Origin: an uncultured Solirubrobacterales bacterium
Lineage (GTDB): Bacteria; Actinomycetota; Thermoleophilia; Solirubrobacterales; Thermoleophilaceae
Assembly: GCA_963825535.1 (NCBI GenBank)
Contig: CAWGTP010000006.1
Span: 183,507-247,506 of the forward strand
Length of the DNA: 64,000 bases
Reading direction: 5' to 3'
Each line of letters begins with the position of its first letter. Positions within the stretch are counted from its first letter, which is position 1. The translations under genes were made by a program, and so were the position numbers. Positions 7,692 through 59,128 of the stretch are shown piece after piece. The notes beneath the pieces were generated by a model, which was not told the origin of the DNA, searched no databases, and worked only from the letters and a program-made list of their open reading frames with translations.

Positions 7692-7696
7692 AGAGC

Positions 7697-10312
7697 CTAT
7701 GAAAGCGTCGTCTCGATCGCCGCGCGGGCCGCGGCCAGGGCGTCGTCGAGCTTCTCGGGATCACGGCCGCCGGCCTGCGCCATCGTGTCGCGCCCACCGC
7801 CGCCCCCGCCCGCAACCTCGGCGGCGACCTTGATGATCGCACCGGCCTTGAGCCCGCGCTCTGTCAGCGCCGGCGCCACCTGCGCCACGAGGTGCACGCG
7901 GCCGTCGGCGGCGGTTCCAAGCACCACGACGGCATCGCCGAGCTTCTGGCGCACGCGGTCGGACAGCGCCAGAAGCTCCTTCGCGTCGCCGACCTCGGAG
8001 CGGGCCGTGACCACCGGAACGCCCCCCATGTCGGCGGCGGCGCCGACCAGGTCGTCGGTGGCGGCCGCGCCATCCTGGCCCGACGGCCGGCTCTGCAGCT
8101 CCTTGACACGGTCGCCGAGGCGCTCCACCGCGCGCGGCAGCTCGTCCTCGGTGGTCTTCAGGCGCGCCGCCAGGTCGCGCAGCATCGCCGTGCGCTCGTC
8201 GAAGAGGCGGGTGGCCTCGGGGCCGGTGACCGCCTCGATCCGCCGGACGTTGGACGCGCTCGAGGTCTCGCTGGTGATGTGGAAGAGCCCAACCTCGGCC
8301 GTTCGTGCCACGTGGGTTCCGCCGCACAGCTCACGCGAGACCTCGTCAACCTCGACCATCCGCACCCAGTCGCCGTACTTCTCGCCGAACAGCGCCATCG
8401 CCCCGAGCTTCTTCGCCTCGTCGAGGCTCGTCTCGATCGCGCGCACCGGCCGGCTTGCGGCGATCCATTTGTTCACGCGCTCCTCGACCGCGTGCAGGTC
8501 GTCCGCCGACATCCGCTCGCCGTGGGTGAAGTCGAAGCGCAGCTTGTCCGGCCCGACGTACGATCCGGCCTGGCGCACATGCGTGCCGAGCCGCTCGCGC
8601 AGCGCCGCGTGCAGCAGGTGGGTCGCGGTGTGGTTGCGCATCGTGGCCAGGCGCGCGTCGCGTTCCACCACGGCGTGCACCCGCTCGCCCTCGACCAGGT
8701 CGCCCTCGAGCGGCTCGAGCGCCAGCGCCTGGTCGCTGCCAAGGCGCAGCACCTCGGCTACCCGCGCGCGCCCGCTGGGGGTCTCGACCAGGCCGCCATC
8801 GGACACCTGGCCGCCACCCTCGGCGTAGAACGGGCTGTCCTCGAGCTTGGCCAGGATCGTGCCGTTGTCGCGCTCGAGCGCGCGCAGCACCGTCTCCGCC
8901 TCGGTGGACTCGTAGCCCACGAAGTTGGTGGTGAAGCCGCTGGTCTTGGCGAACGTCGAGGCGCGCTCGCGCACGCTGTCGCCCGCCCCGACGCGCCCCT
9001 CCCCGCGCGCGACCTCGCGCGCGACCTCCATCAGACCCGCGAACCCCTCCTCGTCCACGCCGAGCCCCTGCTCGGCCAGCAGCTCGGTGGTCAGCTCGAA
9101 CGGGAACCCGAAGGTGTCGTGCAGCCGAAATGCCTCCTCGGCCGCGATCGCCTGCTGACCGTCGTGGCGCGCCTTCTCGATCAGATCGGCCAGCAGGCGC
9201 TCGCCCTGGGCAAGTGTGCGGCCGAAGCCCTCCTCCTCGGCGGCGGCCCAGCGCAGGATCGTGTCACGCTCCTCGTGCAGCTGCGGGTAGGGCTCGCCCA
9301 TCTTGTCGATGACGACCTGGCACAGGTCCGGCACGAACCCGTCCGCGATGCCCAAGCGGCGGCCCTGCTGGATCGCCCGGCGCAGTATCCGGCGCAGGAT
9401 GTAGCCGCGGTCCTCGTTCGACGGGACCACGCCGTCGGCCATCAGAAACGTGGCGCCGCGCCCGTGGTCGGCCAGGATCCGCAGCGCGCGGGTGGTCGCG
9501 AAGTCGTCCCCGGCCCGTTTGCCCGACCGCTGCTCCCCGAACTCGACCAGCGGCGCGAACAGGTCGGTCTCGAACACGGACGGGACGTCCTGCAGGATCG
9601 CCGCCATCCGGTCCAGTCCCAGCCCCGTGTCGATGTTCTGCTGCGGGAGATCGGTCAGCGACCCGTCCGCGTGCAGCTCGAACTGCATGAACACAAGGTT
9701 CCAGTACTCCAGGAACCGCTCGGTGTCATCGCCCGGGCGGTCGTCCTCGGACCCGAAGCCGGGGCCACGGTCGAGGTAGAGCTCCGAGCACGGGCCGCAC
9801 GGCCCCGTGGGCCCGGACTGCCAGAAGTTGTCCTCCATGCCCAGGCGCACGATGCGCCCCTCGGGCACGCCGATCGCGCGCCAGCACTCGATCGCCTCCT
9901 CGTCGGGCCCGACTCCCAAGTCCTCGTCGCCGCCGAAGACGGTGATCCAGATCTGCTCCGGGTCGAAGCCGAAACCCGCCGTCGAGAGCTCCCACGCGTA
10001 CTCCGCCGCCCCCTGCTTGAAGTAGTCCCCGACCGAGAAGTTGCCCAGCATCTCGAAGAAAGTCAGGTGGCGCGCGGTCAGGCCCACGTTCTCGATGTCG
10101 GTGGTGCGGAACACCTTCTGGCACGAGGTCAGGCGTGGCGAGGGCGGCCTTTCCTCACCCCTGAAATAGGGCTTGAACGGCTGCATCCCGGCGGTGGTCA
10201 GCAGCACCGTCGGGTCGAAGCTCGCAGGCACGAGCGACGCGGAGGCGATTCGCTCGTGCCCGCGCTCCTCGAAGAACGTCAGGTACCGCTCCCGTATCTC
10301 GGCCGACTGCAT
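7697..10312 (-). CDS. alaS: alanine--tRNA ligase
   Basis: 871 aa from ATG 10312 (MQSAEIRERYLTFFEERGH...). Class II core, editing-domain motifs HTATHLLHAAL and CGGTH, and a C-terminal DHHA1-like GGGGGR. Confidence 0.95.
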   Translation of the reverse strand: MQSAEIRERYLTFFEERGHERIASASLVPASFDPTVLLTTAGMQPFKPYFRGEERPPSPRLTSCQKVFRTTDIENVGLTARHLTFFEMLGNFSVGDYFKQGAAEYAWELSTAGFGFDPEQIWITVFGGDEDLGVGPDEEAIECWRAIGVPEGRIVRLGMEDNFWQSGPTGPCGPCSELYLDRGPGFGSEDDRPGDDTERFLEYWNLVFMQFELHADGSLTDLPQQNIDTGLGLDRMAAILQDVPSVFETDLFAPLVEFGEQRSGKRAGDDFATTRALRILADHGRGATFLMADGVVPSNEDRGYILRRILRRAIQQGRRLGIADGFVPDLCQVVIDKMGEPYPQLHEERDTILRWAAAEEEGFGRTLAQGERLLADLIEKARHDGQQAIAAEEAFRLHDTFGFPFELTTELLAEQGLGVDEEGFAGLMEVAREVARGEGRVGAGDSVRERASTFAKTSGFTTNFVGYESTEAETVLRALERDNGTILAKLEDSPFYAEGGGQVSDGGLVETPSGRARVAEVLRLGSDQALALEPLEGDLVEGERVHAVVERDARLATMRNHTATHLLHAALRERLGTHVRQAGSYVGPDKLRFDFTHGERMSADDLHAVEERVNKWIAASRPVRAIETSLDEAKKLGAMALFGEKYGDWVRMVEVDEVSRELCGGTHVARTAEVGLFHITSETSSASNVRRIEAVTGPEATRLFDERTAMLRDLAARLKTTEDELPRAVERLGDRVKELQSRPSGQDGAAATDDLVGAAADMGGVPVVTARSEVGDAKELLALSDRVRQKLGDAVVVLGTAADGRVHLVAQVAPALTERGLKAGAIIKVAAEVAGGGGGGRDTMAQAGGRDPEKLDDALAAARAAIETTLS

Positions 10313-28676: not shown

Positions 28677-28750
28677 GGCTCCGTAGCTCAGTTGGTAAGA
28701 GCGCACGACTCATAATCGTGAGGTCCCTGGTTCGAGTCCAGGCGGAGCTA
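28677..28750 (+). tRNA. tRNA-Met (anticodon CAT), elongator-like
   Basis: Manual cloverleaf: acceptor GGCTCCG/CGGAGCT (pair 1-72 is G-T), D arm GCTC/GAGC, anticodon arm CACGA-CTCATAA-TCGTG, T arm CCTGG-TTCGAGT-CCAGG, discriminator A. No encoded CCA and no initiator-type GGG/CCC anticodon stem. An Ile2 (lysidine) identity cannot be excluded. Confidence 0.85.
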
Positions 28751-29965: not shown

Positions 29966-31732
29966 GTGAAGGTCTTTCGGAGACTGCTGGGCTTCCTGCG
30001 CCCCTACCGCCGCGGCGTGATCGGCTCGCTGCTGCTGGCCGCGGCCGCGATGGGCACCGGCGTGATGATCCCGTTCCTGGTCGGCCGCACGATCGACGAC
30101 ATCCGCGGCGGCGGCGACAGCCTGTGGGTGCTGGCCGGCGTGCTGGTGGCCGCCGGAGTGCTGCGGCTGGCCTTCAGCGTCGTCCGGCGGCTGGTGGCAG
30201 GGCGCGTGTCGCTCGGCGTGGAGTTCGACCTGCGCAACCTGATGTACCGCCACCTGCAGTCGCTCGAGCTGAGCTTCTTCGACGGCCAGCAGACCGGCCA
30301 GCTGATGTCACGCTCGACCGTCGACCTCCAGTCGGTGCGGTTCTTCCTCGGCTACGGGCTGATCTTCATGATGCAGTCGGCCCTGGCCATCCTTATCGCC
30401 GCCGGCGTGATGCTCGCGGTCAACCCGCTGCTGGCCGCGGTCGCACTGGCACCGATGCCGCTAGTCATCTGGGTGGCCGCCCGCTACGGGAAGCTGAACC
30501 GGCCCGCCGCGCAGGAGGTGCAGCAGCGGATCGCGGAGCTGACCGCGGAGGCCGAGGAGAACGTGGGCGGAGTGCGCGTGGTCAAGGCGTTCGCGCAGGA
30601 GCGGCGCCAGGTCAAGCGCTTCGACCGCGCCGTCACGCGCGTGTTCGACCAGTCGATGGTGTCCACGCGGCTGCGCGCGTTCTACAACCCGTTCCTGGGC
30701 TTCCTGCCCCAGCTCGGCCTGGCGGCGATCATCCTGGTCGGGGGGCGGCAGGTGATCAACGGCGCCATCTCGATCGGGGACTTCGTGGCCTTCTATGGCT
30801 ACGTGGTCATGCTCGTCGGCCCGATGCGCATGCTCGGTGTGTCGTTGGGCATGGCCCAGCGTGCCGTGGCATCGGGCAACCGCGTGTTCGAGATCCTGGA
30901 CCGCGCGCCGCGGCTGACCGCGCCCGACGACGCTTCGGCGCTGCCGGCGGGCGGCGGGCACGTGCGCATGAGCGGCGTGTCGTTCGGCTACGAGGGAGGC
31001 GCCGGCGAGGTGCTGCGCGACATCGAGCTGGACGTCCCGGCCGGCCGGACGGTGGCCGTGGTTGGCGCCACCGGGTCCGGCAAGAGCACGCTGGTCATGC
31101 TGATCCCGCGGCTCTACGACGTGGACCTCGGAGCGGTCACGATCGACGGCGTCGACGTCCGGGACGTAGACCTGGAGTCGCTGCGCCACGAGATCGCGCT
31201 CGTTTCCGACGACGCGTTCCTGTTCAGCGCCTCGCTTCGCGACAACATCGCCTACGCGCGGCCCGAGGCCGCCGATGAAGAGGTGGCCGAGGCCGCCGCG
31301 CGCGCTGGGCTTACCGAGGTGGTCGCGGGCCTGCCCGACGGCTACGACACGCTCGTGGGCGAGCGCGGCCTGACCCTCTCCGGCGGCCAGCGCCAGCGCG
31401 TGGCGATCGCGCGAGCGCTGCTGGCGGCGCCGCGGGTGCTGATCCTGGACGACGCCACGTCCAGCGTGGACGCCACGACCGAGAGCGCGATCAAGAAGGC
31501 ACTTGCCGAGGTCATGGAGGGCCGCACCACGTTCGTGATCGCGCACCGGATGTCCACGATCTCGCTGGCCGACGAGGTGATCGTGCTCGAGGACGGCCGG
31601 ATAGCCGCGCAAGGCACGCACGACGAGCTTCTCGAGCGCTCGCCGCTGTACCGCGAGATCGCCGAGCGCGGCCTGCCGGACCCGCGCGTGCTCGCGGCCG
31701 CCAACGAGGGCCGGCAGGTCGCGGGCCTGTGA
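29966..31732 (+). CDS. ABC exporter half-transporter (TMD-NBD), subunit with a non-canonical catalytic residue
   Basis: Six-TM exporter domain. Walker A GATGSGKST, signature LSGGQRQR, Walker B LILDDATSSVD (Asp where the catalytic Glu is expected). Confidence 0.9.
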   Translation: MKVFRRLLGFLRPYRRGVIGSLLLAAAAMGTGVMIPFLVGRTIDDIRGGGDSLWVLAGVLVAAGVLRLAFSVVRRLVAGRVSLGVEFDLRNLMYRHLQSLELSFFDGQQTGQLMSRSTVDLQSVRFFLGYGLIFMMQSALAILIAAGVMLAVNPLLAAVALAPMPLVIWVAARYGKLNRPAAQEVQQRIAELTAEAEENVGGVRVVKAFAQERRQVKRFDRAVTRVFDQSMVSTRLRAFYNPFLGFLPQLGLAAIILVGGRQVINGAISIGDFVAFYGYVVMLVGPMRMLGVSLGMAQRAVASGNRVFEILDRAPRLTAPDDASALPAGGGHVRMSGVSFGYEGGAGEVLRDIELDVPAGRTVAVVGATGSGKSTLVMLIPRLYDVDLGAVTIDGVDVRDVDLESLRHEIALVSDDAFLFSASLRDNIAYARPEAADEEVAEAAARAGLTEVVAGLPDGYDTLVGERGLTLSGGQRQRVAIARALLAAPRVLILDDATSSVDATTESAIKKALAEVMEGRTTFVIAHRMSTISLADEVIVLEDGRIAAQGTHDELLERSPLYREIAERGLPDPRVLAAANEGRQVAGL

Positions 31733-33507
31733 GCGGCCTACGCGCCAACTGGGCGACTGTGCGGGCCGAGCGCGGCCGCGCCCGCCGGCTCGGCAAGCTG
31801 GCCGCGCTGCTGCGCCCCTACCGCGGCCGCGTCGTGCTGATGTTCATCACGCTGGTGATCGCGACCGCGGCTGCGCTGGCGCCCGCCTACCTGGCCGGGC
31901 GCGCCATCGACGCGGGGATCCGCGACAAGGACACCACGGCGCTCACCTGGATCATGGTGGCCTTCGTGGGCGCGGGCCTGGTCAACTTCGCCGCCACCTA
32001 CGCGCAGACGTACCTGACCAGCTGGGTCGGCCAGCGCGCGCTGCAGGACCTGCGCCGCCAGATCTTCCGCCACCTCCAGCGGCTGTCGATCGGCTTCTAC
32101 TCACGCAACAAGGCGGGCGTGCTGATCTCACGTATGACCAACGACGTGCAGGCGCTGGACCAGCTCGTAACCGACGGCATCGTGACGCTGTTCTCGGCCT
32201 CGCTGACGTTGATCGGCACCGCCGCGATCCTGATGGCGATGGACGTCAAGCTGGCGCTGATCACGTTCACGGTGTTCCCGGTGCTGGCGATCGCCAGCGT
32301 CGCCTTTCGGATCGCGTCGGCGGACGCCTACCGGATGACCAGGGAGAAGATCGCCTCGATCACCTCCTATCTCCAGGAGACGCTCTCGGGGGTGAGGATC
32401 GTGCGCGCGTTCGGCCAGGAGCCACGGCACGAGCGCCAGTTCACCGGCCTCAACGACGAGAACCGCGACGCGAACATGAAGACCGTCTACCTGAACGCCG
32501 CCTACTTCCCGTCGGTAGAGCTGCTGTCCGCCGTCGCAACCGCGGTGATCCTGGTCTATGGCGGCAACCAGGTGGTCGACGGCGCCGTGTCGATCGGCGT
32601 GCTCGCCTCGTTCGTGTTCTACCTGGCCACGTTCTTCGACCCGATCCAGCAGCTCTCGCAGCTGTACACGACCTACCAGTCGGGCATGGCTGCGCTGGAC
32701 AAGATCTTCGGGCTGTTGGCCGAACAGCCCGAGATCGAGGACGCACCCGGCGCGACCGAGCTGCCGCCGGTCAAGGGCCAGATCGACTTCGACGGCGTTT
32801 GCTTCTCATACGGCAACGACGAGGTCCTGCACGCGATCGACCTGCATGTGCCGCCGGGCCAGACCGTCGCGCTCGTGGGCGCCACGGGCGCGGGGAAATC
32901 CACGCTGGCCAAGCTGGTGGCGCGCTTCTACGACCCCACATCGGGCCGGATCGCCATCGACGGCCACGACCTGCGCGACGTGACCGAGCACTCGCTGCGC
33001 TCCCAGCTGGGCACGGTGCCCCAGGAGGGCTTCCTGTTCTCCGGCAGCATCCGCGAGAACATCGGCTTCGGCGCCCCCGAGGCGGGTGACGAGGAGGTCG
33101 AGGCCGCGGCTCGGGCCGTGGGCGCCAGCGAGTTCATCGAGCGGCTTCCCGGCGGCTACGACACCGAGGTCGGTGAGCGCGGCGGCCACCTGTCCGCCGG
33201 CCAGCGCCAGCTGGTCGCCTTCGCCCGCGCCGCCGCCGCCGACCCACGCGTGCTGATCCTCGACGAGGCGACCTCGAACGTGGACGTGGCGACCGAGGCG
33301 CGGATCGAGCACGGCCTGCGCCGGCTGCTGGCCGGGCGCACCGCGATCGTGATCGCGCATCGGCTGTCGACGATCCAGGACGCCGGGCGGATCGTGGTGC
33401 TCGAGCACGGCCGGATCGCCGAGCAGGGCACGCACGACGAGCTGCTGGCCGCCGGCGGCGCCTACGCGCGGCTGTACGAGGACTGGGCGCGGCAGGCAGC
33501 CGCGTAG
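31729..33507 (+). CDS. ABC exporter half-transporter (TMD-NBD), canonical catalytic subunit
   Basis: Walker A GATGAGKST, Walker B LILDEATSNVD (canonical Glu), signature LSAGQRQL (deviant). 4-nt overlap with the partner gene. Confidence 0.9.
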   Translation: MSGLRANWATVRAERGRARRLGKLAALLRPYRGRVVLMFITLVIATAAALAPAYLAGRAIDAGIRDKDTTALTWIMVAFVGAGLVNFAATYAQTYLTSWVGQRALQDLRRQIFRHLQRLSIGFYSRNKAGVLISRMTNDVQALDQLVTDGIVTLFSASLTLIGTAAILMAMDVKLALITFTVFPVLAIASVAFRIASADAYRMTREKIASITSYLQETLSGVRIVRAFGQEPRHERQFTGLNDENRDANMKTVYLNAAYFPSVELLSAVATAVILVYGGNQVVDGAVSIGVLASFVFYLATFFDPIQQLSQLYTTYQSGMAALDKIFGLLAEQPEIEDAPGATELPPVKGQIDFDGVCFSYGNDEVLHAIDLHVPPGQTVALVGATGAGKSTLAKLVARFYDPTSGRIAIDGHDLRDVTEHSLRSQLGTVPQEGFLFSGSIRENIGFGAPEAGDEEVEAAARAVGASEFIERLPGGYDTEVGERGGHLSAGQRQLVAFARAAAADPRVLILDEATSNVDVATEARIEHGLRRLLAGRTAIVIAHRLSTIQDAGRIVVLEHGRIAEQGTHDELLAAGGAYARLYEDWARQAAA

Positions 33508-33510
33508 CCC

Positions 33511-34152
33511 CTAGCGCCGGTCCTGGCTCGGCGGAGCCGTCACTGAAACGGCGTAGATGATCTCGAAGGCGGCGTCCACGACCTCGGTCAGCCGCTCGGC
33601 CCGGCCCTCCTCGACCACCTCGAGCATCAGCTCGTTGATGCCGGCCACGATCGCGGTGGCCACCGCCGGGCTGATCGGGCGCACGTCGGGCCGGTCGCGA
33701 GCGGCCTGCTCGGACAACCGTACGAACGTGTCGGCGTGGGCCTTGTAGGCCTGCCGCCGCACCCGCAATGCCTCGGGCCCACCGGCCTGGACCTCCAGCA
33801 CCAGCGTCCGCGTGAGCTGGGGGCTTGACGCCGCGACACGCATGTAGGTCAGGCACGCGGCGCGCGCCTTGGCCTCCCAGGTGTCCTCCTGTGCGATCGC
33901 CTGGTCGATCACCCCCAGCATCTGGTCGGTGATCGACATGGCGAGCGCGGCGAAGCACTCGCGCTTGTCGGTGAAGTACTCGTAGAAGGTCCGCTTGGAC
34001 ACGTGCGCATGGCGAACAATGTCGGCCACCGTGGTAGCGCCGAGCTCCTTCTCGGCGAGCGCGGACGCGAGTCCGTTGATCAGACGCCGGCGATAACGAT
34101 CAGATCCGCCGGAATCCCCTGCGCGCGCCTCGGTCCCAATGATCGCGGACAT
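33511..34152 (-). CDS. TetR family transcriptional regulator
   Basis: N-terminal HTH: TTVADIVRHAHVSKRTFYEYFTDKRECF. 213 aa. Divergent from the lipid-kinase operon. Confidence 0.9.
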   Translation of the reverse strand: MSAIIGTEARAGDSGGSDRYRRRLINGLASALAEKELGATTVADIVRHAHVSKRTFYEYFTDKRECFAALAMSITDQMLGVIDQAIAQEDTWEAKARAACLTYMRVAASSPQLTRTLVLEVQAGGPEALRVRRQAYKAHADTFVRLSEQAARDRPDVRPISPAVATAIVAGINELMLEVVEEGRAERLTEVVDAAFEIIYAVSVTAPPSQDRR

Positions 34153-34262
34153 CGGTTTCCTAACCCTACGCCAGCGTGGCCGAGAGTACGGCTACCACGA
34201 TTGGCGGCCTCCGGAAAGCTGAACTAGATTTGGATAGTCGTTAACGAAAGGCGAGGGTAGGC

Positions 34263-35180
34263 ATGCGACTGGCGCGCCGCTCATCTCACGCGTCGGTGAT
34301 CGTGAACGGACGCGCCAGCGGAAGCGTCGATGCCTCCGACCTGCTCGCCGAGGTGGTCGACCACGTCCGCGCTGCGGGCGCCACGGCCGACGGCCTGGTC
34401 ACCCACGATGAAGACGAGCTCCGGGCGGCGCTCGAGCGGGCCGGCGATCGCCGCGCGGTACTCGTCGGCGGCGACGGCACGCTGCACACCGCGCTCAACC
34501 TGCCGATCGAGTTGCCCGAGCTGGCACTGGTGCCGGCCGGGCGGGCGAACAACGTCGCACGTGCCCTCGGCATCCCCAGCGATGCCGGCGCCGCCGCCCG
34601 GTTGGCCGTCAAGGGTCCGGCAGCCGCCCTCGACACCCTGCTGGTGGAGTCCAGCGGACGCTCGACGTACACACTCGAGGCGCTCAGCGCCGGGCTCCAG
34701 GCCGATGCCCGTGGGCGCTACAACGGCCAGAACTCGGCCGATCTCGCAGCCGGCGTGCGCGCGCTGGCGAATGCCATGCGCTCCTACCATCCCTACCCGG
34801 TCGACCTCGAGATCGACGGGGAACAGGCGTTCGCGGGCAGTGCCGGCCAGGTGTTCCTGGCGAACATGCCCTACTTCGGCTTCGGTTTCAGGGTCGATCC
34901 GTACGCCGACCCCTCGGACGGGCTGCTGGAGGCGATCGTGCTCGAGGCTGCGTCGCGGGCATCGGCGGCGAAGCTGCTGATATCGGTCTACCGGGGCCAC
35001 CACCTCCAGCGTGCCGGCGTGCACGTCAGGCGAGGGCGTCGCGCGCGCCTCTCGGGACCGCTGCCGATGGCTTCGGACGGCGAACCGCTCGGAATCGGGT
35101 CGGCGACCATCACGATCGACCCCGACCGGCTGCGGCTGGTCACCCACGGCCTCCCGATGGAGGCGTCATGGCAAGGGTGA
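34263..35180 (+). CDS. diacylglycerol-kinase-catalytic-domain lipid kinase (DgkB/YegS-like)
   Basis: SVIVNGRASG, VLVGGDGTLHTAL (GGDGT motif), LVPAGRANNVARALG. RBS GAGGG lies upstream of the ATG. Confidence 0.85.
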   Translation: MRLARRSSHASVIVNGRASGSVDASDLLAEVVDHVRAAGATADGLVTHDEDELRAALERAGDRRAVLVGGDGTLHTALNLPIELPELALVPAGRANNVARALGIPSDAGAAARLAVKGPAAALDTLLVESSGRSTYTLEALSAGLQADARGRYNGQNSADLAAGVRALANAMRSYHPYPVDLEIDGEQAFAGSAGQVFLANMPYFGFGFRVDPYADPSDGLLEAIVLEAASRASAAKLLISVYRGHHLQRAGVHVRRGRRARLSGPLPMASDGEPLGIGSATITIDPDRLRLVTHGLPMEASWQG

Positions 35181-37870
35181 GCGGTCCAGCCGGGGGCGCC
35201 GCAGGCTTTCTGGCGGCGTTCGGGATGGCCGCGCTCGGAGTCGGAGCAGCGCGAGCCATCACCACCTCGTATGTACCGGTACTGCTCGAGCGGATCCAGG
35301 ACAACCCGGCGCTGATCGGCGTGGTGATGCTCGTGAACGCCGGCGCGGGGTTCGCCGTGCCGCTCGCGGTCGGTGTGTGGACGGACCGCCACGGCGGCGG
35401 GCGCATGGGCCCGAGGCTGCCGTTCCTGGTCGCGGGCGCCGTTCTGACGAGCGTGGGCCTCACCGCGGTCGCGCTCGGGACCGAGAGCTCCTATCTCTTC
35501 CTCGCCCTGGCGGCGGCGATCGTCTACGTGGGGCTCAACGCCGCCGCCACCGCCCACCGCGCAATCGTGGCGGAGTCGTTCGAGGACGGACGCCGGCCGG
35601 GCGCGACCAGCGCCCAGGAGACGGCGATGCTCGTCGGGGCGCTTGCCGGTGTCGTCGTGGGTGGGTTCCTGATCGACTCAACCCCCTGGCTGGTATTCGC
35701 CGCTACGGCGCTTGCGCTTCCGGCGCTGGCGATAGTGACTGTGCGGGCGACGCTGGGACGGCTCGGGCCCGGGCCGGGCGGACGCCGGACACCTGCCGCG
35801 CCCAACCGTGGCGGGGGACGCGACCTGCTCGGGGCGTTGCAGGTGCGCGGCGCACGCGAGGTCCTGCTGGCGCAGATCATCTGGGTCGGGGCCTACGCGG
35901 CCCTGCCGGCCTTCTTCATCCTGTACGCCGACGACGTGCTCGAACTGGGGGCCGGGCCTGCATCACTGATGCTCGCCGGCTTCGGCCTCTTCACCGGCGG
36001 CGCCATGGTCATCGCGGGCCGCACCGCGCCGGAGCGCGTCTACCCGCTGCTGTGTCTGGGCGCGCTGGCGCTCGGCGCCGGCCTCGCGGTCTCAGCGCTC
36101 GGCGGCAGCGTCGCGGCCGTGAGCATCCCGTTCGCTGTCGCAGCCGTGGGCGCGGGCCTGGTCACGGCGCTCGGATTTCCCTACTTCGCCCGCTTCATCC
36201 CCGACGGGGAGTCGGGCCGCTACACCGGGCTGTTCTTCTCGGTGCGGGCGATTGCCACGGCGGTCGCGCTGCCGCTTGCCGGGCTCGCGATCGAGCTTTC
36301 GGGCAGCTACCGGTCGCTGCTGCTGCTCGGTGGCACGGCGCTGCTGGCGCTGATCCCGCTCGGCATTGCCGAGCGCGGCCGCGCCGCCGCGCCCGATCGC
36401 CGCCGGTCGCCACCCGCCCGTCTTGCCGCGGTAATCCCCTGCCATGAGTCCGCATGCCTCGAGCGCGTTGTGGTGCTGACGCTCGCGCAGGTCGACCGCG
36501 CCGTGGTGGTGGCCGACGGCTGTTCGCCGCTGCTCGGCGACGAGCTGCAGCGGATCGCGCGGCTGCCACGGGCGCAAGTGGTGCGGCTGGAGCGCAACGC
36601 CGGAAAGGGCACCGCCGTGGCCGCCGGGATCGACGCTGCGCTGAACTCGGATCACCGACCCGACGCGGTCGTGGTGGTCGACGCCGACGGCCAGCATCCG
36701 CCCGAGCGGATTCGCGAGCTCGCCGCCGCGGCCGCCGGCGCCGATCTTGTCATCGGCGATCGGCTCGGCGAAGTGGCCGCGATGCCGCGCGTGCGCCGCT
36801 TCACCAACCGTGTCTCGAGCACGCTGCTCAGCGTGGTCACCAGACGGCGGGTGCGTGACTCGCAGTGCGGCATGCGCCTGTACCGCAGCGAGCTGCTGGA
36901 GCGGGTCCCACCCCCGCCCGGGCGCTACGAGGCCGAGACGCTGCACCTGCGCGCGATGCTCCGTGAGGGCGCGCGCGTGGCGTGGGTGCCGATAGCGTCG
37001 ATCTACGGCGACGCCCAGAGCTCCTTCCGCCCGCTGCGGGACACGCTGCGTGTGCTCGCGGCGATCGTGCTGCCCGCCGCGCTCGTGCGCCGGGCGGCGT
37101 CCGCGTGGCGGAGGCGGCGCGGCGAGCGGGACCGCGGCGTGGCCTGGCCGGAACGGGACTTCTGGCGCATCTGGGGCGTGCGGCTGGCCGCGATCGTGAT
37201 CGGCACCTGGGCACTTGCCGCGTTCATCCCGCTGATCGAGGCAGCCGACCACAAGCTGTTCGTGGCGATCAACTCGGTCGGGGCCGGGCCCGACTGGGTC
37301 TACCAGACGCTCGATCCGCACAGCCGCAACTACATCCTGCTCTGCCTGGCCGCGGTGCTCGTGGCGCGGCTGAGGTGCCCGCCTCGGGTGCTCGGCGTGG
37401 CGGCCGCCGTCGTGCTCGCCGCTTTCGTCTCCGATGTACTGGTCCAGGCTGTCTACCTGGTACATGACCGCGCCCGGCCGGAGGAGGTGCTGGGCGGCCA
37501 GGCGCTGCTCACCAACGGGCGGCACTGGTCGCACATCGCCTCCTTCCCCAGCGGGCACCTGACCGTGACCACCGCGATCGCCGTCGCGGCGATGTCCACC
37601 GTCCCGGCGCTGCGAGCGCCGATGTGGACCTATGTGGCGGTCATCGCCGTGACCAGGATCACGTTCGGAGCCCATTTCCCGCTCGATGTGGCCGTCGGGA
37701 TCGTGTTCGGCTACGAGGCCGGGCGCTTCTCGGCTGCCTTCATCCAGGCGACCGGGCTGCTGCGCGGCCCGCTGGCGGACGCCTCGCCGCTGACGCGGCC
37801 ACGCACGCCCGGCTTGAGACCGCGGCCGGCCGGCGGCCCGGCGTGGACCCGCTCGAATCGATCGGGCTAG
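35168..37870 (+). CDS. tri-domain membrane protein: MFS-like transporter + family-2 glycosyltransferase + PAP2 phosphatase
   Basis: Single 900-aa ORF. Residues ~1-400 are multi-TM with the loop WTDRHGGGRMGPRLPF. Residues ~405-640 have VIPCHES, ADGCSP, NAGKGTAVAAG, VVDADGQHPP and DSQCGMRLY (GT2). Residues ~690-880 are TM helices with HDRARPEE, FPSGH and TRITFGAHFPLDV (PAP2 C1-C3). Confidence 0.85.
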   Translation: MARVSGPAGGAAGFLAAFGMAALGVGAARAITTSYVPVLLERIQDNPALIGVVMLVNAGAGFAVPLAVGVWTDRHGGGRMGPRLPFLVAGAVLTSVGLTAVALGTESSYLFLALAAAIVYVGLNAAATAHRAIVAESFEDGRRPGATSAQETAMLVGALAGVVVGGFLIDSTPWLVFAATALALPALAIVTVRATLGRLGPGPGGRRTPAAPNRGGGRDLLGALQVRGAREVLLAQIIWVGAYAALPAFFILYADDVLELGAGPASLMLAGFGLFTGGAMVIAGRTAPERVYPLLCLGALALGAGLAVSALGGSVAAVSIPFAVAAVGAGLVTALGFPYFARFIPDGESGRYTGLFFSVRAIATAVALPLAGLAIELSGSYRSLLLLGGTALLALIPLGIAERGRAAAPDRRRSPPARLAAVIPCHESACLERVVVLTLAQVDRAVVVADGCSPLLGDELQRIARLPRAQVVRLERNAGKGTAVAAGIDAALNSDHRPDAVVVVDADGQHPPERIRELAAAAAGADLVIGDRLGEVAAMPRVRRFTNRVSSTLLSVVTRRRVRDSQCGMRLYRSELLERVPPPPGRYEAETLHLRAMLREGARVAWVPIASIYGDAQSSFRPLRDTLRVLAAIVLPAALVRRAASAWRRRRGERDRGVAWPERDFWRIWGVRLAAIVIGTWALAAFIPLIEAADHKLFVAINSVGAGPDWVYQTLDPHSRNYILLCLAAVLVARLRCPPRVLGVAAAVVLAAFVSDVLVQAVYLVHDRARPEEVLGGQALLTNGRHWSHIASFPSGHLTVTTAIAVAAMSTVPALRAPMWTYVAVIAVTRITFGAHFPLDVAVGIVFGYEAGRFSAAFIQATGLLRGPLADASPLTRPRTPGLRPRPAGGPAWTRSNRSG

Positions 37871-38547
37871 ACGGCCGGCTCGGGCGCGCGGCCGCGCTGG
37901 GGCCGCTGGATGCCGAGCACCCTGACGAGCCCCCACGAGCCCAGCACGAGCAGGCCGCCGGTCAACCAGCCGGCGAGAACGTCGGTCGGGTAGTGCACGC
38001 CGAGGAAGACGCGTGACATGCCGACCGCGAGGACGATCACGCCACCAACGAGCCCGACCGCCACACGGACCCGGTCGCGGCTCGCGGCCCGGATCAGCAG
38101 GAAGGCGAGGGTCGCGTAGACCGCCATGCTCGTGGCCGAGTGACCGCTTGGAAAGCTGAATCCGCCGGCGTGTACGAGCTGGTCATCGGCACCGGGTCGC
38201 GGCCGCTCCACGACCTGCTTGATCACCTGGACTGTCAGCTGTGCGGCCACCACCGACAAGACGACCATCAGCACGCCGTGCCAGTGCCGCAGTAGGGCGA
38301 GCACCGCGGTCGCCGCGGCGGCGACCAGCAGCGCGATCTGGGTGCTGCCGACGGCCGAGACGAACAGCGCGGCGCCGGTTCCGGCCGTCAGGGCGGGCCG
38401 GTCTCGCAGTCCCTCGACGGCGAGGCTGTCCAGCCGCGGCAGGGTGACGGTGTGCGTCACGGCCATGCCGAGCACGGCGACCACCCCGGCCATCAACGCC
38501 AGCCACGGCAGGAACGACTTGTGGATGTAGCGATTCAGTGGAGGCAT
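37867..38547 (-). CDS. PAP2-family membrane phosphatase
   Basis: 226 aa with KQVVERPRP, FPSGHSATS and SRVFLGVHYPTDV. Convergent with the fusion gene; the two stop codons share the tetranucleotide CTAG. Confidence 0.88.
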   Translation of the reverse strand: MPPLNRYIHKSFLPWLALMAGVVAVLGMAVTHTVTLPRLDSLAVEGLRDRPALTAGTGAALFVSAVGSTQIALLVAAAATAVLALLRHWHGVLMVVLSVVAAQLTVQVIKQVVERPRPGADDQLVHAGGFSFPSGHSATSMAVYATLAFLLIRAASRDRVRVAVGLVGGVIVLAVGMSRVFLGVHYPTDVLAGWLTGGLLVLGSWGLVRVLGIQRPQRGRAPEPAV

Positions 38548-38663
38548 GGATGGGCGTGGCGCAGCCCTGCCAGCGAGTTCGGCGCCTGCGAAGCCTCACC
38601 TCTCTCGATACCCATGACGGCCACCGATCAACCACCGGTGCCGTCAACCACGGCAGAGTGCTA

Positions 38664-38734
38664 CTGGGGGACAGGGATTCGAACCCCGATTACCTGGACC
38701 AGAACCAGGCGTCTTGCCGTTAGACGATCCCCCA
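38664..38734 (-). tRNA. tRNA-Gln (anticodon CTG)
   Basis: Manual cloverleaf on the minus strand: acceptor TGGGGGA/TCCCCCA, D arm GTCT/AGAC, anticodon arm CCTGG-TTCTGGT-CCAGG, T arm CGGGG-TTCGAAT-CCCTG, discriminator G. Confidence 0.88.
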
Positions 38735-38799
38735 ATCGAGACCGGGACGATAGCGATTTCCGACCGAGCCCGATGGGAACGTATGTTCGTGACGGTGAC

Positions 38800-39474
38800 C
38801 TAGCCCGCGGCCGTGGCCCGGCCCGCGAATCGCTCGGTCACCGACTCCTCGATGCCGATGTCCAGCACCAGCAGGACCTCGTCGCCGGCCTGTACGACCG
38901 ACTCGCCGGTGGGCACGAAGCCGCCGCCGTCACGCAGGATCGAGATCACGAGGGCGCCCTGGGGCAGACCGAGGGACTGCACCGCGACGCCGTCGGCGGC
39001 GGACCCCTCGGCCACCTCCATCTCGATGATCTCCAGCCGCTCCTCCTTGAGGTCCAGCAGGTGCACGAGGCCGTACTTGGGAACCTCGTGTTCGATCAGG
39101 CGCATGATCAGGTCGGTGGCGGACACGGCGGGCTTGACGCCCAGTAGCTCGAAGTGCTGGAGGTTGCGCGGGTTGTTGCAGCGGGCGACCACGCGCTCGA
39201 CGCCGTACTTCTCCTTGGCCACCTGGCAGATCAGGATGTTGTCCTCGTCGTCGCCGGTTACGGCGATCACGAGGTCGGCGCGCTCGATGCCGGCGCGCTC
39301 CAGGATCCAGAGCTCGGTGCCGTCGCCGTACTGGATGTTGTGCTCGAGCTCCTCTTCGACCACCTCGTAGCGGCGGCGGCTGGCCTCGACGACCGTGACC
39401 TCGTTCTGCTTGTCGATCAGCTCGCGGGCCAGATTCCAGCCAACCTTGCCGGCGCCGACGATCAGGACGTACAT
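38800..39474 (-). CDS. trkA: TrkA/RCK protein with TrkA_N and TrkA_C domains
   Basis: 224 aa. MYVLIVGAGKVG (GxGxxG Rossmann), a C-terminal RCK_C-like segment (…GALVISILRDGGGFVPTGESVVQAGDEVLLV). The start shares one base with the upstream stop (TGATG). Confidence 0.88.
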   Translation of the reverse strand: MYVLIVGAGKVGWNLARELIDKQNEVTVVEASRRRYEVVEEELEHNIQYGDGTELWILERAGIERADLVIAVTGDDEDNILICQVAKEKYGVERVVARCNNPRNLQHFELLGVKPAVSATDLIMRLIEHEVPKYGLVHLLDLKEERLEIIEMEVAEGSAADGVAVQSLGLPQGALVISILRDGGGFVPTGESVVQAGDEVLLVLDIGIEESVTERFAGRATAAG

Positions 39475-39929
39475 CAGGCTCTCACCCCGCGGCGCTCGGG
39501 CTGGCCGCCGACGGCGCGCTCCAGCATCTCGATCGCGGTCTGGGTCGGGCAGATCGTCTGGAGGCCCTGCTCGGCGTACCACCTGGCGCGCCCGGGGTCG
39601 AGCACGCGCACCACGACCTTGGCGATCGAGAACCGGCGCTGGGCGATCTGGGCGATCACCAGGTTGGTGTTGTCGCCATCGGTGGAGGCCACGAACGCAT
39701 CGGCGTTCTCGATCCCCGCCGCGAGCAGCGCGTCGATCTCCAGCGCAGTGCCGACCGTGAACGAGCCACCGAGGTCCTCCCAGCTCTGCTCCTGGCCGCG
39801 GTTGAGCAGCGCGATCGCCTCGGGGTTCTCATCGAGCACCGACACCTCGTTGCCCGCGGACAGCATGGATTTGGCGACGGACGAGCCAACTCGGCCGCAG
39901 CCCACGATCAGGACGAACACTGCGCGCAC
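39474..39929 (-). CDS. TrkA_N-only RCK protein
   Basis: About 150 aa with FVLIVGCGRVG and no RCK_C domain. The start is uncertain: GTG 39929 or GTG 39920. Confidence 0.8.
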   Translation of the reverse strand: MRAVFVLIVGCGRVGSSVAKSMLSAGNEVSVLDENPEAIALLNRGQEQSWEDLGGSFTVGTALEIDALLAAGIENADAFVASTDGDNTNLVIAQIAQRRFSIAKVVVRVLDPGRARWYAEQGLQTICPTQTAIEMLERAVGGQPERRGVRA

Positions 39930-39948
39930 AATAGCGGCGCGGAGCCGG

Positions 39949-41895
39949 TCAGGACGCGGTCTGGGCGGGCGATGGCTCCGCCGCCGGCGCATCGGCGGGC
40001 GGCGCGGTCAAGATGACCTTGCACGGGGCCTTCTCGACCACGTAGCGCGTGGTATCGCCCGCGAACCGGTCCTCCGCGCTGGCCTTGCCGCCGAAGCGGG
40101 CGCCGCCGCGGGTACGGCTGGGAGGCTCGGCGGCCAGCACGATCGCCTCCACCCCGCGTCGCTTGGCCTCGGACACGATCGCCGCGCCGGCGGAGCGCCC
40201 GCGCACGGTGGCGGTGGCCACCTCGACACCCTCATACTCCTCGCCGACCTCTTTCGCCCGCGCCAGCGCCTCACGGCCGGCGGTGACCTTGTCCGGCGCC
40301 ACGCGGGCGTCGATCGGCAGCGACATCGGGATCTCGAACACGTACAGGGCCTCGAGCATCGCGCCGCCCTCCCCCTCGTCGGCCTCGTCTGCCGCCAGCC
40401 GCCCGGCCGTGCCCACGATGTCGTCGTCAAGCGCACCGCCGAAGACCGGGACCAGGATGCTGCCGTACGCGGCCTCGTGCCGGGCCTCCTTTAGCGCCGC
40501 CTCGGGGATCGTGAAGCGCTTGGTCAGCGGCTTGCCCTGGCTGCGGCGGTAGACCACGTACAGCCCCAGGCCGGCCAGCATCCAGATGCCACCGGCGATC
40601 CGGGCACCCTCGTGCAGCACCACGACCGTCACCCAGCCCGCGCTGCCCATCAGCGCGCCGAGCGCGGCCGGAAGCGGGATCGACCCGCCGCCGACCGGCA
40701 CGCTAAGCGGGATACGAAACGGACGCGCCCGGTCGGGCTCGCGGAAGCGCAGCACGATCACCGACAGATGCGCAATCGTGAACGCCAGCATCGCGCCGAA
40801 CGCGAAGATCCCGGCCAGGAAGTCGATGTCGTTCGAGAGCGCCAGGCCGAAGCCGATCACCGCCGCGAGCGCGATCGTCACGTAAGGCGTCGAGCGGCGG
40901 GCGTCGAGACGCGACAGCAGGCTGGGGATCTGGCGGTTGGTGCCCAGCGAGTACGCCAGCCTGCCGATGCCCAGCATCTGCCCGTTCACCGCCTGGACCA
41001 GGACCAGTGCGCCCACGAAGCCGACCACGTAGCGGGCCGCCTCGGCGAGCCCGGCCGGCTCGAACGCGGACACCACGCCCAGCACCGGCGCGTCGATGTA
41101 GCGCCCTCCGAGCGCGGTGCCGTCCTCGCCGGCCGGCACCGCCATCAGCGCGATCACCGACACCGCCACGTACAGGACCAGCACCGATGCGGCACCGACC
41201 AGGGCCACCCGGCGCAGGTCGGAGCGACGGACCTTTACATCGGCGGCAAGGCCCGAGGCGGCCTCGATGCCGGTGCACGCCACCGTGGCGATCACCATCG
41301 CGAACACCAGATCGTCCACCGCGGGCATCGAGCCGAGGTCGATCGAGTCGGTGATCAGCGCCAGATCGAACAGCTGGGCGGTGCCGACCACGAGGATCGT
41401 GGCGAACACCACCAGGCTGACGAGCGACAACCGCAGCACCACCTTGTAGCGCTGCGCCGAGACCCCCTGGAAGTTCATCCAGGCCACCCAGCCGATCGTG
41501 GCCGCCGAGATCAGGATGGCCACCGCCCCGTCGTCCGCCTCGCCCCAGAAGGCGCCGAGGTAGTGCGGCACGGCCACGGCGCCGATGGCCAGCACGATCA
41601 GGAAGTCCAGCAGGATCGCCCAGCCGGCCACGAAGCTCCACAGCTCGTTGAAGCCGTAGCGGGCCAGTGCCGCGGCGCCGCCGCGCTCGGGGTGGAGTGA
41701 GTTTCCCTCCACGTATGTGAGCATCGTCAGCACGAAGAACAGCGCGCCCACGGCGAACACGAGCGGAGTCAGGCCCTGGGCCTGGCCCGCCACCACTCCG
41801 AGGATGTAGTACAGCGACGAGCCCACGGCCGCCGCCGCGATCGCGAACAGCACCGGCTGGCCCAGTCCGCGCGCGATCCGCGTCTCGGTGTTCAC
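39949..41895 (-). CDS. APC-superfamily permease with C-terminal universal stress protein (USP) domain
   Basis: 648 aa from GTG 41895 (GTGA overlap with the upstream small ORF). 12-TM APC-type core, then a USP-like tail (ILVPVFGGALDDD…VATATVRGRSAGAAIVSEAKRRGVEAIVLAAE). Confidence 0.85.
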   Translation of the reverse strand: MNTETRIARGLGQPVLFAIAAAAVGSSLYYILGVVAGQAQGLTPLVFAVGALFFVLTMLTYVEGNSLHPERGGAAALARYGFNELWSFVAGWAILLDFLIVLAIGAVAVPHYLGAFWGEADDGAVAILISAATIGWVAWMNFQGVSAQRYKVVLRLSLVSLVVFATILVVGTAQLFDLALITDSIDLGSMPAVDDLVFAMVIATVACTGIEAASGLAADVKVRRSDLRRVALVGAASVLVLYVAVSVIALMAVPAGEDGTALGGRYIDAPVLGVVSAFEPAGLAEAARYVVGFVGALVLVQAVNGQMLGIGRLAYSLGTNRQIPSLLSRLDARRSTPYVTIALAAVIGFGLALSNDIDFLAGIFAFGAMLAFTIAHLSVIVLRFREPDRARPFRIPLSVPVGGGSIPLPAALGALMGSAGWVTVVVLHEGARIAGGIWMLAGLGLYVVYRRSQGKPLTKRFTIPEAALKEARHEAAYGSILVPVFGGALDDDIVGTAGRLAADEADEGEGGAMLEALYVFEIPMSLPIDARVAPDKVTAGREALARAKEVGEEYEGVEVATATVRGRSAGAAIVSEAKRRGVEAIVLAAEPPSRTRGGARFGGKASAEDRFAGDTTRYVVEKAPCKVILTAPPADAPAAEPSPAQTAS

Positions 41896-42089
41896 CGCGC
41901 TCTCCCCCGCGGCCACACCCCGGCCACGTAGAGGCGCCCCACCCCCGCCAGCACGAAGAGAACGCCGAGCACCACGCCGAGCGCCAGCGGGCCGCCGCCG
42001 CGGGCGAGCGTGCTGATGACCATCGCAATGCCGATCAGGCACACGGCGGCGCCGAGGACGCGGCCGGAATGCATCAGCGCGCGCTCCAT
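41892..42089 (-). CDS. 65-aa two-helix membrane protein, hypothetical
   Basis: MERALMHSGRVLGAAVCLIGIAMVISTLARGGGPLALGVVLGVLFVLAGVGRLYVAGVWPRGRAR. Its start shares a base with the upstream permease stop (TGATG) and its stop overlaps the downstream permease start (GTGA). Confidence 0.6.
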   Translation of the reverse strand: MERALMHSGRVLGAAVCLIGIAMVISTLARGGGPLALGVVLGVLFVLAGVGRLYVAGVWPRGRAR

Positions 42090-57985: not shown

Positions 57986-59128
57986 CTAGCGCCTGACGAT
58001 GCGGAAGGCGGCGCGCTTGAGGGTGCTGGTCTTGCGGGCGGGGGTGGTCGCCCGGGCGGACAGGCGGTACACGCCGGGCTTGAGCTTGCGGTTGCGCAGC
58101 CGCCCCCGGAACGTGAACCGGTTGTCCCCCGGCTCGCCGGCGATCTTCCACGACCCAGAGCGCCTGACCCAGCGCGTACAGCGCCGCCGACTGCGGTTCG
58201 ATCGGCGGGACTTCACGCACCTGCGCCCGACACGGCGTCCGCGGGTCTTGATCTCGACCCTGAAGCGCGTCGAGGCGGTCTGGGACAGCGAGAAGCGGAC
58301 CCTGGTCCCGGTTCTGGCCGACGCGATGGCGCGGCCGGAGCGCGCGGCCCTGAAGCGCTTGCGCGAGAGGACCAGCTTGCCCAGCTTCGGCGTGCCGGTT
58401 TCATCTGCCGCAGGCACACCGGGGCTCACCGGGGCGGGGGTCGGATTCGACGCCGGCGTGGGCTGGCGGAAGTTGTCCAGCCGCGCGGTGCCGTAGGACG
58501 CCAGGCCGACTGCGGTCCCGGTGCCCGCCCCGGCCGGATAGTCGGAGCCGAAGCTGGCTTCGGGCACACCGTCGAAGTTGGTGTCGATGTCCAGCGTCAG
58601 ACGGTCGCCGACCACGAAGACGTGCAGCCGCCCGCTGGTGAACGCCGGGATCACGACGCTGCTGGGTGTGGGCGTGCCGGCACCGTTGTTGCCCACGTAG
58701 AAGTAGGCGCGGTTGAAGCCGCCGGGGTTGTTCTGCTGGACCTTGACGAACAGGTTCTGGGTGAGCGCGCCGTAGCGCAGGACCACGCCCGCGTACTGGA
58801 CATTGTTGCCGTTGGTGGCCACGTCCACGCATACCTCTGTGGCGGTGAAGTCGTTGAACGTCGCCAGCCCGGCCGTGGCGTTGGGGTTCGCGGCTCGCTG
58901 CCCCGTTACGGCCACCGACGGAGCCCGCTCGGTCCAGTTGCCGCCCAGGTTCGGGCTGTCGCCGCGGTCGAAATCGTCAAGCGTGGTCCCGCAGGTGTAT
59001 GCCCATGCGCCGGGAGCGGCCAGCAACAGGCCGAGCACGGCAACCGCAAGTGCCACCGCAGACCTCACCCCCACCCTTCGCGGGGCGGTCCCCGGTCGCG
59101 ACGTCGAAGTTGTTTCGCGGGAGATCAT
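57986..59128 (-). CDS. secreted hypothetical protein with an extremely basic C-terminal domain
   Basis: Signal peptide (…RRVGVRSAVALAVAVLGLLLAAPGAWA, possibly Tat-type), a beta-rich middle part, a Pro/Thr linker, then an Arg/Lys-rich ~130-aa tail. Confidence 0.7.
   Translation of the reverse strand: MISRETTSTSRPGTAPRRVGVRSAVALAVAVLGLLLAAPGAWAYTCGTTLDDFDRGDSPNLGGNWTERAPSVAVTGQRAANPNATAGLATFNDFTATEVCVDVATNGNNVQYAGVVLRYGALTQNLFVKVQQNNPGGFNRAYFYVGNNGAGTPTPSSVVIPAFTSGRLHVFVVGDRLTLDIDTNFDGVPEASFGSDYPAGAGTGTAVGLASYGTARLDNFRQPTPASNPTPAPVSPGVPAADETGTPKLGKLVLSRKRFRAARSGRAIASARTGTRVRFSLSQTASTRFRVEIKTRGRRVGRRCVKSRRSNRSRRRCTRWVRRSGSWKIAGEPGDNRFTFRGRLRNRKLKPGVYRLSARATTPARKTSTLKRAAFRIVRR

Follow-up and report, generated by a model that had tools for sequence, protein, structure and literature searches.

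The 64,000-nucleotide stretch of DNA analyzed here (hereafter, the window; contig CAWGTP010000006.1 from an uncultured Solirubrobacterales bacterium of the class Thermoleophilia) contains a gene for a soluble lipid kinase directly followed by a gene for a protein with three fused domains: an MFS transporter domain, a GT2 glycosyltransferase domain, and a PAP2 phosphatase domain (the fusion; Table 1). Counts of neighboring genes across related loci show that the kinase and the fusion form a conserved unit, which usually includes a second, standalone PAP2 gene and sometimes a DedA gene, whereas the TetR-family regulator gene and the pair of ABC exporter genes that adjoin the unit in the window are local. 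We tentatively propose, giving it slightly less than an even chance, that this module is a Thermoleophilia-specific carrier-lipid sugar unit, which would synthesize a polyprenyl-phosphate hexose, flip it across the membrane by means of the MFS domain, and return the carrier through a phosphatase on the outside and a kinase on the inside.

The comparison covered 59 non-redundant Thermoleophilia loci, which were obtained from long contigs, a genome scan, and a metagenome scan seeded with a segment specific to the MFS domain. The loci were annotated using the window's own domains as queries, and the counts given below refer to the loci in which the feature in question could be assessed. The genome scan, which used the pattern DADGQHP, was swamped by generic GT2 proteins, with loci L002 to L007 usable; the metagenomes were re-scanned with the MFS-specific segment. 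More than 100 full-length relatives of the fusion were found at 50 to 90% identity, and all of the named ones belong to Thermoleophilia (Thermoleophilaceae or Solirubrobacterales). The kinase gene is located immediately upstream of the fusion gene at distances between −36 and +123 nt in 37 of 38 loci, and because it recurs to this extent, the kinase-fusion pairing is more than a chance association. The sole locus without the kinase (L093) has only a C-terminal MFS fragment, situated beside unrelated sugar-uptake genes. The pair persists at 50 to 90% protein identity within otherwise unrelated neighborhoods, and its flanks differ wholly between clades (polA, coaE, and uvrB in L084; a penicillin amidase gene in L086). 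As a vertically inherited core, the module spans three orders of the class.

The standalone PAP2 gene adjoins the pair in 17 of 21 loci. In some it lies downstream and converges on the fusion gene, as it does in the window; in the others it lies upstream and diverges from the kinase gene. A DedA/VTT gene precedes the upstream PAP2 gene in 10 of 27 loci; the window locus itself has none. The layout is exemplified by L087, in which DedA (5818-6519, +) is followed by PAP2 (6529-7080, −) and the kinase (about 7096-8004, +), and it is also found in L003, L005, L099, L104, L105, L113, L114, L126, L131, and L133. The DedA protein matches UptA models at 8e−15, which is below their cut-off. The TetR gene, by comparison, is present in only 2 of the 27 loci with enough upstream sequence, namely the window and its closest relative (L082/L083, 83% identity). 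Of the gene set put forward in the preliminary description of this DNA, the kinase and the fusion thus stayed together almost without exception and the second PAP2 gene mostly did, while the TetR gene dropped out: it is a local accessory outside the conserved module, and "TetR-flanked" is an apt label for this genome and that one relative only. Further recurring neighbors were limited to paralogous families (14-TM [transmembrane helix] MFS transporters, LuxR-type ATPases, and ABC transporters), each of them in no more than 5 of 25 loci. In the DedA-linked clade (L087, 2893-5586, −, and the equivalent regions of L003 and L114), a Sulfotransfer_4 gene and an ABC-2 exporter (ABC_tran plus ABC2_membrane) precede the module, and in that clade only, a sulfated or exported glycoconjugate may be involved.

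The fusion is a recurrent association and not a one-off. Among 47 complete fusions, 38 have the order MFS-GT2-PAP2 and 9 have the permuted order MFS-PAP2-GT2, which was confirmed with Pfam on L115 (7014-9704, +) and also occurs in L004, L096, L100, L117, L119, L125, and L132. The permuted fusions keep the upstream kinase and usually have a convergent PAP2 gene downstream. Split versions, in which the genes are still adjacent, are found in L135, L006, and L007. In L135 (3110-7318, +), GT2 and PAP2 are genes of their own that come after a gene for an MFS-PAP2-PhoD protein; separate PAP2 and GT2 genes also occur in L006 and L007, and in L007 they converge on an MFS-PAP2 gene. The MFS-PAP2-PhoD-like fusions are about 1190 to 1400 aa long (for example, protein P0253), and their PhoD domain may indicate hydrolysis of phosphodiesters outside the cytoplasm or scavenging of phosphate. 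Proteins that would join the kinase to its neighbors in a single chain fared less well. A 728-aa "VTT_dom + DAGK" fusion of L087, considered as a Rosetta-stone candidate, was rejected: the gene call spans the antisense strand of a genuine PAP2 gene as a long open reading frame in high-GC DNA. The kinase-MFS-GT2-PAP2 protein P0082 is probably an indel artifact, because in L001 the kinase changes frame partway and so occupies two frames. In P0270 and P0289, kinase and MFS are in one frame, to which we attach little weight, as one indel where the genes overlap by 4 nt would be enough to join them.

The MFS domain seems to be largely dedicated to this module. When the domain alone was searched against 1.84 billion representative proteins, only 372 matches were obtained at E ≤ 1e−3. 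Of 10 larger matches that were sampled, 9 gave Pfam matches, and all 9 carried PAP2, GT2, PhoD, or kinase domains. Given the count from the whole scan and these partner domains, the MFS subfamily appears to be small, isolated, and found almost only in this partnership, with PAP2 as its most constant partner. In an AlphaFold2 model built from 116 sequences (mean predicted local distance difference test [pLDDT] score, 89; predicted template modeling score, 0.67), the MFS domain has 12 long helices with pLDDT mostly above 85. Invariant polar or charged residues within its helices are R29, N57, N124, H130, R131, E151, Q236, Y243, and R360, of which the intramembrane R29, R131, and R360 would fit an anionic head group.

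The preliminary description placed the GT2 domain in the polyprenyl-phosphate/DPM1 type, and this assignment gained support from its signature, profile, and fold and from NCBIfam matches. The segment VDADGQHPPERI aligns with DADLQHPPE of the Pyrococcus enzyme PfDPMS and DADLQDPPE of GtrB, that is, with the DADxQxPPE signature, and together with RNAGKGTAVAAG it aligns with both proteins over the DAD-x-Q-x-PPE and N-x-GKG motifs. Across 116 sequences, D505, D507, Q509, H510, G479, K480, and G481 are invariant. A profile of the family has ArnC (4.9e−17), DPMS (9.9e−16), and GtrB (4.4e−12) as its best solved structures, and Foldseek returned the same three, led by ArnC with 291 to 299 aligned columns of 308 to 318 residues. 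The best NCBIfam matches are dolichyl-phosphate hexose transferase, AglJ, PpgS, and ArnC. Judging from these comparisons, the domain belongs to the class of enzymes that load sugars onto polyprenyl or dolichyl phosphate, without being an orthologue of any named enzyme, and its sequence and fold point to polyprenyl phosphate, not diacylglycerol, as the acceptor.

In the fused PAP2 domain, the invariant residues are R768, R770, and P771 (motif C1), S795-G796-H797 (C2), and R830, H836, and D840 (C3), which are part of the motifs RP, PSGH (794-797), and TRX5HX3D (829-840). Its closest solved match is LpxE (6ebu, 2e−11), and its best NCBIfam matches are SepP (1.4e−8) and undecaprenyl-diphosphate (Und-PP) phosphatases of the YbjG type (1e−5). 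The standalone PAP2 protein has the fully canonical KX6RP/PSGH/SRX5HX3D set (IKQVVERPRP, FPSGH, and SRVFLGVHYPTD) and matches PgpB best among the NCBIfam models, followed by SepP and Und-PP phosphatase. By family similarity, both PAP2s thus resemble Und-PP phosphatases, and we infer their substrate at that level. The standalone PAP2 of the window shares only 35% identity, over 94 residues, with the PAP2 that accompanies DedA in other clades; two distinct PAP2 lineages fill the standalone position. Hydropathy and the helices of the AlphaFold2 model, with 12 MFS TM helices followed by a cytoplasmic GT2 domain and then by the PAP2 helices in their order, place the C1 motif of the fused PAP2 on the outer face of the membrane. 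The permuted domain order predicts the same orientation, and the PAP2 active site is therefore predicted to face outward.

The kinase has the DAGK_cat plus YegS_C architecture, a GGDGT motif (VLVGGDGTLHTALN in the translation), and no hydrophobic or TM segment in its hydropathy profile. NCBIfam lipid-kinase models match it at 1e−26 to 1e−11, and none of them reaches its equivalog cut-off (PRK13057, 90.5 of 274 bits; TIGR00147, 75 of 119; PRK11914, 72.7 of 302; YegS, 67 of 284). A search for homologues recovered only a clade that mirrors that of the fusion, under generic names. On this sequence evidence, the kinase belongs to the DgkB/YegS/Rv2252 superfamily but falls short of orthology to any characterized diacylglycerol or phosphatidylglycerol kinase. 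Its stop codon overlaps the start of the fusion gene, for which there are two candidate start codons: ATG at 35168, which follows GGAGG, or GTG at 35177 within a GTGA overlap. This overlap suggests that the kinase and the fusion are translationally coupled.

We propose the following cycle for the module. The GT2 domain, whose class is shown by sequence and fold, would act at the cytoplasmic face and load polyprenyl phosphate with a hexose taken from a nucleotide sugar; both the hexose and this lipid are our reading of the class. The fused MFS domain would then translocate the lipid-linked intermediate, and the most parsimonious form of this step is outward flipping of the polyprenyl-phosphate sugar, because in that direction each part gains a distinct role and DedA, where present, can supply the return of polyprenyl phosphate. 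An extracytoplasmic transferase encoded elsewhere would consume the sugar. The PAP2s, with active sites facing outward as their family and topology suggest, would dephosphorylate the spent carrier (polyprenyl diphosphate to polyprenyl phosphate and/or polyprenyl phosphate to the alcohol), and the coupled soluble kinase would re-phosphorylate the alcohol inside the cell and close the cycle. The genetic context suggests a polyprenol, and not diacylglycerol, as the substrate of the kinase. DedA-PAP2 synteny is a published signature of Und-PP dephosphorylation combined with flipping of undecaprenyl phosphate (Und-P) (Roney and Rudner, bioRxiv 10.1101/2022.02.03.479048), and by this analogy the DedA-PAP2 pairs of the relatives point to carrier-lipid recycling. 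The proposed order of steps is also the one drawn in a review of actinobacterial mannosylation, where a polyprenol kinase is followed by a GT2 synthase and then by a "hypothesized flippase" (PMC12757957).

Several observations weigh against this cycle. The preliminary description stated that the locus encodes every activity needed for a lipid-linked sugar cycle, which is overstated: none of the 25 long neighborhoods encodes an extracytoplasmic transferase of the GT-C type that would consume the sugar. All matches to NCBIfam equivalog models fall well short of the cut-offs (for GT2, dolichyl-phosphate hexose transferase, 63 of 375 bits; PpgS, 46 of 370; ArnC, 35 of 529). For the MFS domain, no sequence similarity to LtaA or LplT was found, its sole sequence match in PDB is SUC1 at 1e−3, and its fold matches in the modeled structure are only generic: SPNS2 is the top MFS match in Foldseek and MFSD2A is present, yet VMAT, NorA, MdfA, MCT, and FucP score equally. 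In the fused PAP2 (37454-37480, aa 763-771), the canonical lysine of the C1 motif KX6RP is replaced by Tyr763, and most relatives have Tyr or Gln at this position; Lys is found only in the DedA-linked clade of L087, P0105, and P0111. With the catalytic His, Arg, and Asp invariant, this replacement may signal altered substrate handling. To our knowledge, every characterized relative of the kinase uses diacylglycerol, sphingoid, or other glycerolipid substrates, and we know of no member of the DgkB/YegS superfamily that uses polyprenols; the undecaprenol kinases known so far are of the DgkA family, which is unrelated. Moreover, a polyprenyl-phosphate-sugar cycle needs neither a phosphatase nor a kinase, because it releases polyprenyl phosphate, so that a polyprenol shuttle is an added assumption, and one that is redundant with DedA where DedA is present. 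Finally, the common two-domain MFS-PAP2 proteins are no less compatible with flipping of the phosphatase product inward. We consider it unlikely that the module is a self-contained, ATP-driven carrier-lipid shuttle, in which the MFS domain would be the long-hypothesized actinobacterial flippase for polyprenyl-phosphate sugars or a third family of polyprenyl-phosphate translocases, the outward-facing PAP2 would convert spent carrier into a free alcohol able to cross the membrane unaided, and the coupled kinase, as the first polyprenol kinase of the DgkB/YegS superfamily, would recharge this alcohol inside the cell.

In one alternative, the MFS domain works in the opposite direction. The outward-facing PAP2 would turn polyprenyl diphosphate into polyprenyl phosphate, which the MFS domain, as a carrier-lipid translocase of a third kind alongside DedA/UptA and DUF368/PopT, would flip inward and pass directly to the fused GT2; the kinase would only salvage free polyprenol. 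No pairing is more constant than MFS-PAP2, proteins with just these two domains are common and GT2 is sometimes a separate gene, there is a formal analogy to DedA-PAP2 fusions that have been read as a phosphatase with the flippase of its product, and the invariant intramembrane arginines would suit a bare phosphate head group. However, this arrangement leaves no flippase for the GT2 product, and in 10 of 27 loci it would duplicate the function of the adjacent UptA-like DedA. The synthases known from this GT2 class have flippases for their products as partners (such as GtrA, GtcA, and ArnE/F). We regard inward flipping as an improbable explanation, although the constancy of the MFS-PAP2 pairing suits it nearly as well as the outward direction.

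The module could also be a glycerolipid cycle composed of a DgkB-like diacylglycerol kinase, phosphatidate or phosphatidylglycerol-phosphate phosphatases, an LtaA- or LplT-like MFS flippase for glycolipid or lysolipid, and a GT2 that acts on a glycerolipid, possibly glycosylating phosphatidate to yield a phosphoglycolipid; such a cycle could serve membrane remodeling, for example, to spare phosphate. LtaA shows that an MFS protein can flip a glycolipid, the family-level matches of the kinase are all to lipid or diacylglycerol kinases, PgpB is the best NCBIfam match of the standalone PAP2, and the PhoD-like phosphatase fused in some variants belongs to enzymes linked to phosphate scavenging. 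Yet the signature, profile, and fold of the GT2 domain are those of polyprenyl-phosphate transferases and not of the GT4, GT28, or GT21 glycosyltransferases that use diacylglycerol, the neighboring DedA-PAP2 genes indicate a carrier lipid, the kinase lies far below the DgkB/YegS equivalog cut-offs (for example, 72.7 versus 302 bits), and a similarity of the MFS domain to LtaA or LplT was not detected. Taken together, a glycerolipid cycle seems quite unlikely to us. We find it very unlikely that the locus is a resistance or stress module directed against antibiotics that bind carrier lipids (bacitracin or lipopeptides), comparable to BcrC with BcrAB, in which the PAP2s and the kinase would supply the carrier pool, the ABC pair and TetR would be the inducible part, and GT2 and MFS would modify or shield the carrier. 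The ABC exporter pair and TetR do adjoin the module in the window and its closest relative, and BcrC-type PAP2 and "undecaprenol kinase" genes are classic bacitracin resistance determinants (PMC3435297 and PMC5723303), but ABC and TetR genes occur at hardly any other locus (2 of 27 in all), the module occupies varied housekeeping contexts such as polA, coaE, and uvrB and is a vertically inherited core conserved in three orders, and the Bcr systems that are known give no role to a sugar transferase.

The positions and strands of the four genes and their domain calls, as given in the preliminary description, were all confirmed by open reading frames and Pfam (Table 1). The GC content at third codon positions is 0.86 to 0.90 for each of the four, as would be anticipated of real genes in DNA of approximately 70% GC. 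The fusion gene and the convergent PAP2 gene share overlapping stop codons in the sequence CTAG (37867-37870) and have no terminator between them, as is also the case in L082 to L085.

Table 1. Genes, domains, and intergenic region of the kinase-fusion locus (positions in the window)
Feature	Position	Strand	Support
TetR-family regulator, 213 aa	33511-34152	−	Pfam TetR_N 2e−11
TetR-kinase intergenic region, divergent promoter, 110 bp, 57% GC	34153-34262		
Soluble lipid kinase, 305 aa	34263-35180	+	Pfam DAGK_cat 1.4e−16, YegS_C 2.2e−27
MFS/GT2/PAP2 fusion, 900 aa	35168-37870	+	Pfam matches to all three domains
Fusion MFS domain, aa 1-405, 12 TM helices	35168-36382	+	MFS_1 1.2e−27, aa 21-367
Fusion cytoplasmic GT2 (GT-A) domain, aa about 406-650	36383-37117	+	Glycos_transf_2 4.2e−13, aa 422-579
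Fusion PAP2 domain, aa about 651-900, six TM helices	37118-37870	+	PAP2 2e−13, aa 745-858
Standalone PAP2, 226 aa, convergent on fusion	37867-38547	−	Pfam PAP2 7.4e−24

Every NCBIfam equivalog match of the TetR protein is far below its cut-off. The spacer between the TetR and kinase genes is less GC-rich than the DNA around it (about 71%) and carries CGTTAACG at 34239, which had been proposed as part of an operator. The spacer is 81% identical to that of L083 and no better conserved than the coding sequence, and the proposed operator is lost in L083, where CGTTAACG has become TGTTAAACG. A repeat finder detected no inverted repeat in the spacer, and no match to the sigma-70 consensus was found there. 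Of the short palindromes ACGCcaGCGT (34168) and ACTA-n8-TAGT (34223), only the 4-nt arms are conserved in L083, and these are too short for an operator to be called.

The remaining features of the surrounding DNA are as follows. The two genes of the ABC exporter pair (29966-33507, +) encode proteins of 588 and 592 aa, each with ABC_membrane and ABC_tran domains, and overlap by 4 nt; the pair ends 4 nt from the TetR stop codon, is shared with no locus other than the closest relative (L082/L083), and may be what TetR actually regulates. A tRNA-Gln(CTG) gene (38663-38735, −) shares the strand of the standalone PAP2 gene and lies about 115 nt 5′ to it; the window also has tRNA-Met (28677-28750, +) and tRNA-Phe (58320-58406, +) genes. 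The region 38800-42042 (−) encodes two TrkA-type K+ uptake components and an amino acid permease fused to a Usp domain; these genes are syntenic with L082/L083 and apparently unrelated to the lipid module.

Our literature search retrieved no description of an MFS/GT2/PAP2 fusion, a YegS-type undecaprenol kinase, Thermoleophilia phosphoglycolipids, or an MFS transporter for Und-P, in agreement with the earlier view that the combination is not a described pathway, and public annotation of the fusion's relatives is limited to "MFS transporter." While the domains taken singly are ordinary members of known superfamilies, the architecture is unprecedented, and the module of kinase and MFS/GT2/PAP2 fusion (with the second PAP2 and with or without DedA), its permuted and split variants, and the dedicated MFS subfamily appear to be undescribed. 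Two transport steps of bacterial envelope glycosylation lack firm assignments: in Actinomycetota, the flippase for polyprenyl-phosphate sugars continues to be drawn as "hypothesized" (PMC12757957), and the return of the carrier lipid has only recently been assigned to the DedA and DUF368 families (bioRxiv 10.1101/2022.02.03.479048). Because the transporter is fused to a synthase and a phosphatase and the kinase is translationally coupled to them, genetic linkage nominates one MFS subfamily and one kinase clade as candidates for these steps and for a new kinase specificity. If the kinase uses polyprenols, the substrate range of DgkB/YegS would be wider than described, and there would be a molecular basis for an alcohol-based return of the carrier; if the substrates are glycerolipids, the module would represent a new phosphoglycolipid pathway in soil bacteria of a class that is widespread yet hardly studied. 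Every example is from a bacterium that is uncultured or has received little study, and the substrate assignments are inferred throughout.

Among known systems, the staphylococcal YpfP/LtaA/DgkB set resembles the module in combining a glycosyltransferase, an MFS protein (a lipid flippase in staphylococci), and a soluble lipid kinase. The analogy drawn in the preliminary description would imply a diacylglycerol glycolipid, but the class of GT2 and the relatives' DedA-PAP2 pairs point to a carrier lipid. YpfP is a GT28 enzyme that acts on diacylglycerol in a pathway without PAP2, whereas GT2 of the module is of the polyprenyl-phosphate class and the MFS domain has no similarity specific to LtaA. 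The kinase shares with DgkB, YegS, and Rv2252 the DAGK_cat plus YegS_C architecture, the GGDGT motif, and the lack of a TM segment; unlike them, it forms a Thermoleophilia clade of its own, is always coupled to the fusion, and is below every curated cut-off.

The pairs GtrB/GtrA, CsbB/GtcA, and ArnC/ArnE-F have in common with the module a GT2 with the DADxQxPPE signature and an ArnC/GtrB/DPMS-like fold, a transporter that is genetically coupled to the synthase, and synthesis in the cytoplasm with use of the product outside, as proposed for the module. In these systems, the partners are small proteins of the GtrA family or SMR-like, while in the module the partner is a covalently fused MFS domain with 12 TM helices; the module also adds a fused PAP2 and a coupled soluble lipid kinase and has no GT-C transferase alongside. 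The DedA(UptA)-PAP2 systems likewise have a transporter fused or adjacent to a PAP2 that faces outward (in the module, by prediction), and such pairs adjoin the kinase and the fusion in 10 of 27 relatives. In the module itself, however, the transporter is an MFS protein, GT2 and the kinase are added, and the window locus has no DedA. By architecture, the fusion can also be likened to another actinobacterial protein, mycobacterial Ppm1 (Rv2051c), in which a soluble polyprenyl-phosphate mannose synthase, a GT2 enzyme without TM helices, is anchored through a polytopic membrane domain. The permuted fusion comes close to this design, as its GT2 domain is C-terminal, with only about 36 residues after it. 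The partner of the synthase is an Lnt (apolipoprotein N-acyltransferase) domain in Ppm1, whereas in the fusion described here it is MFS together with PAP2.

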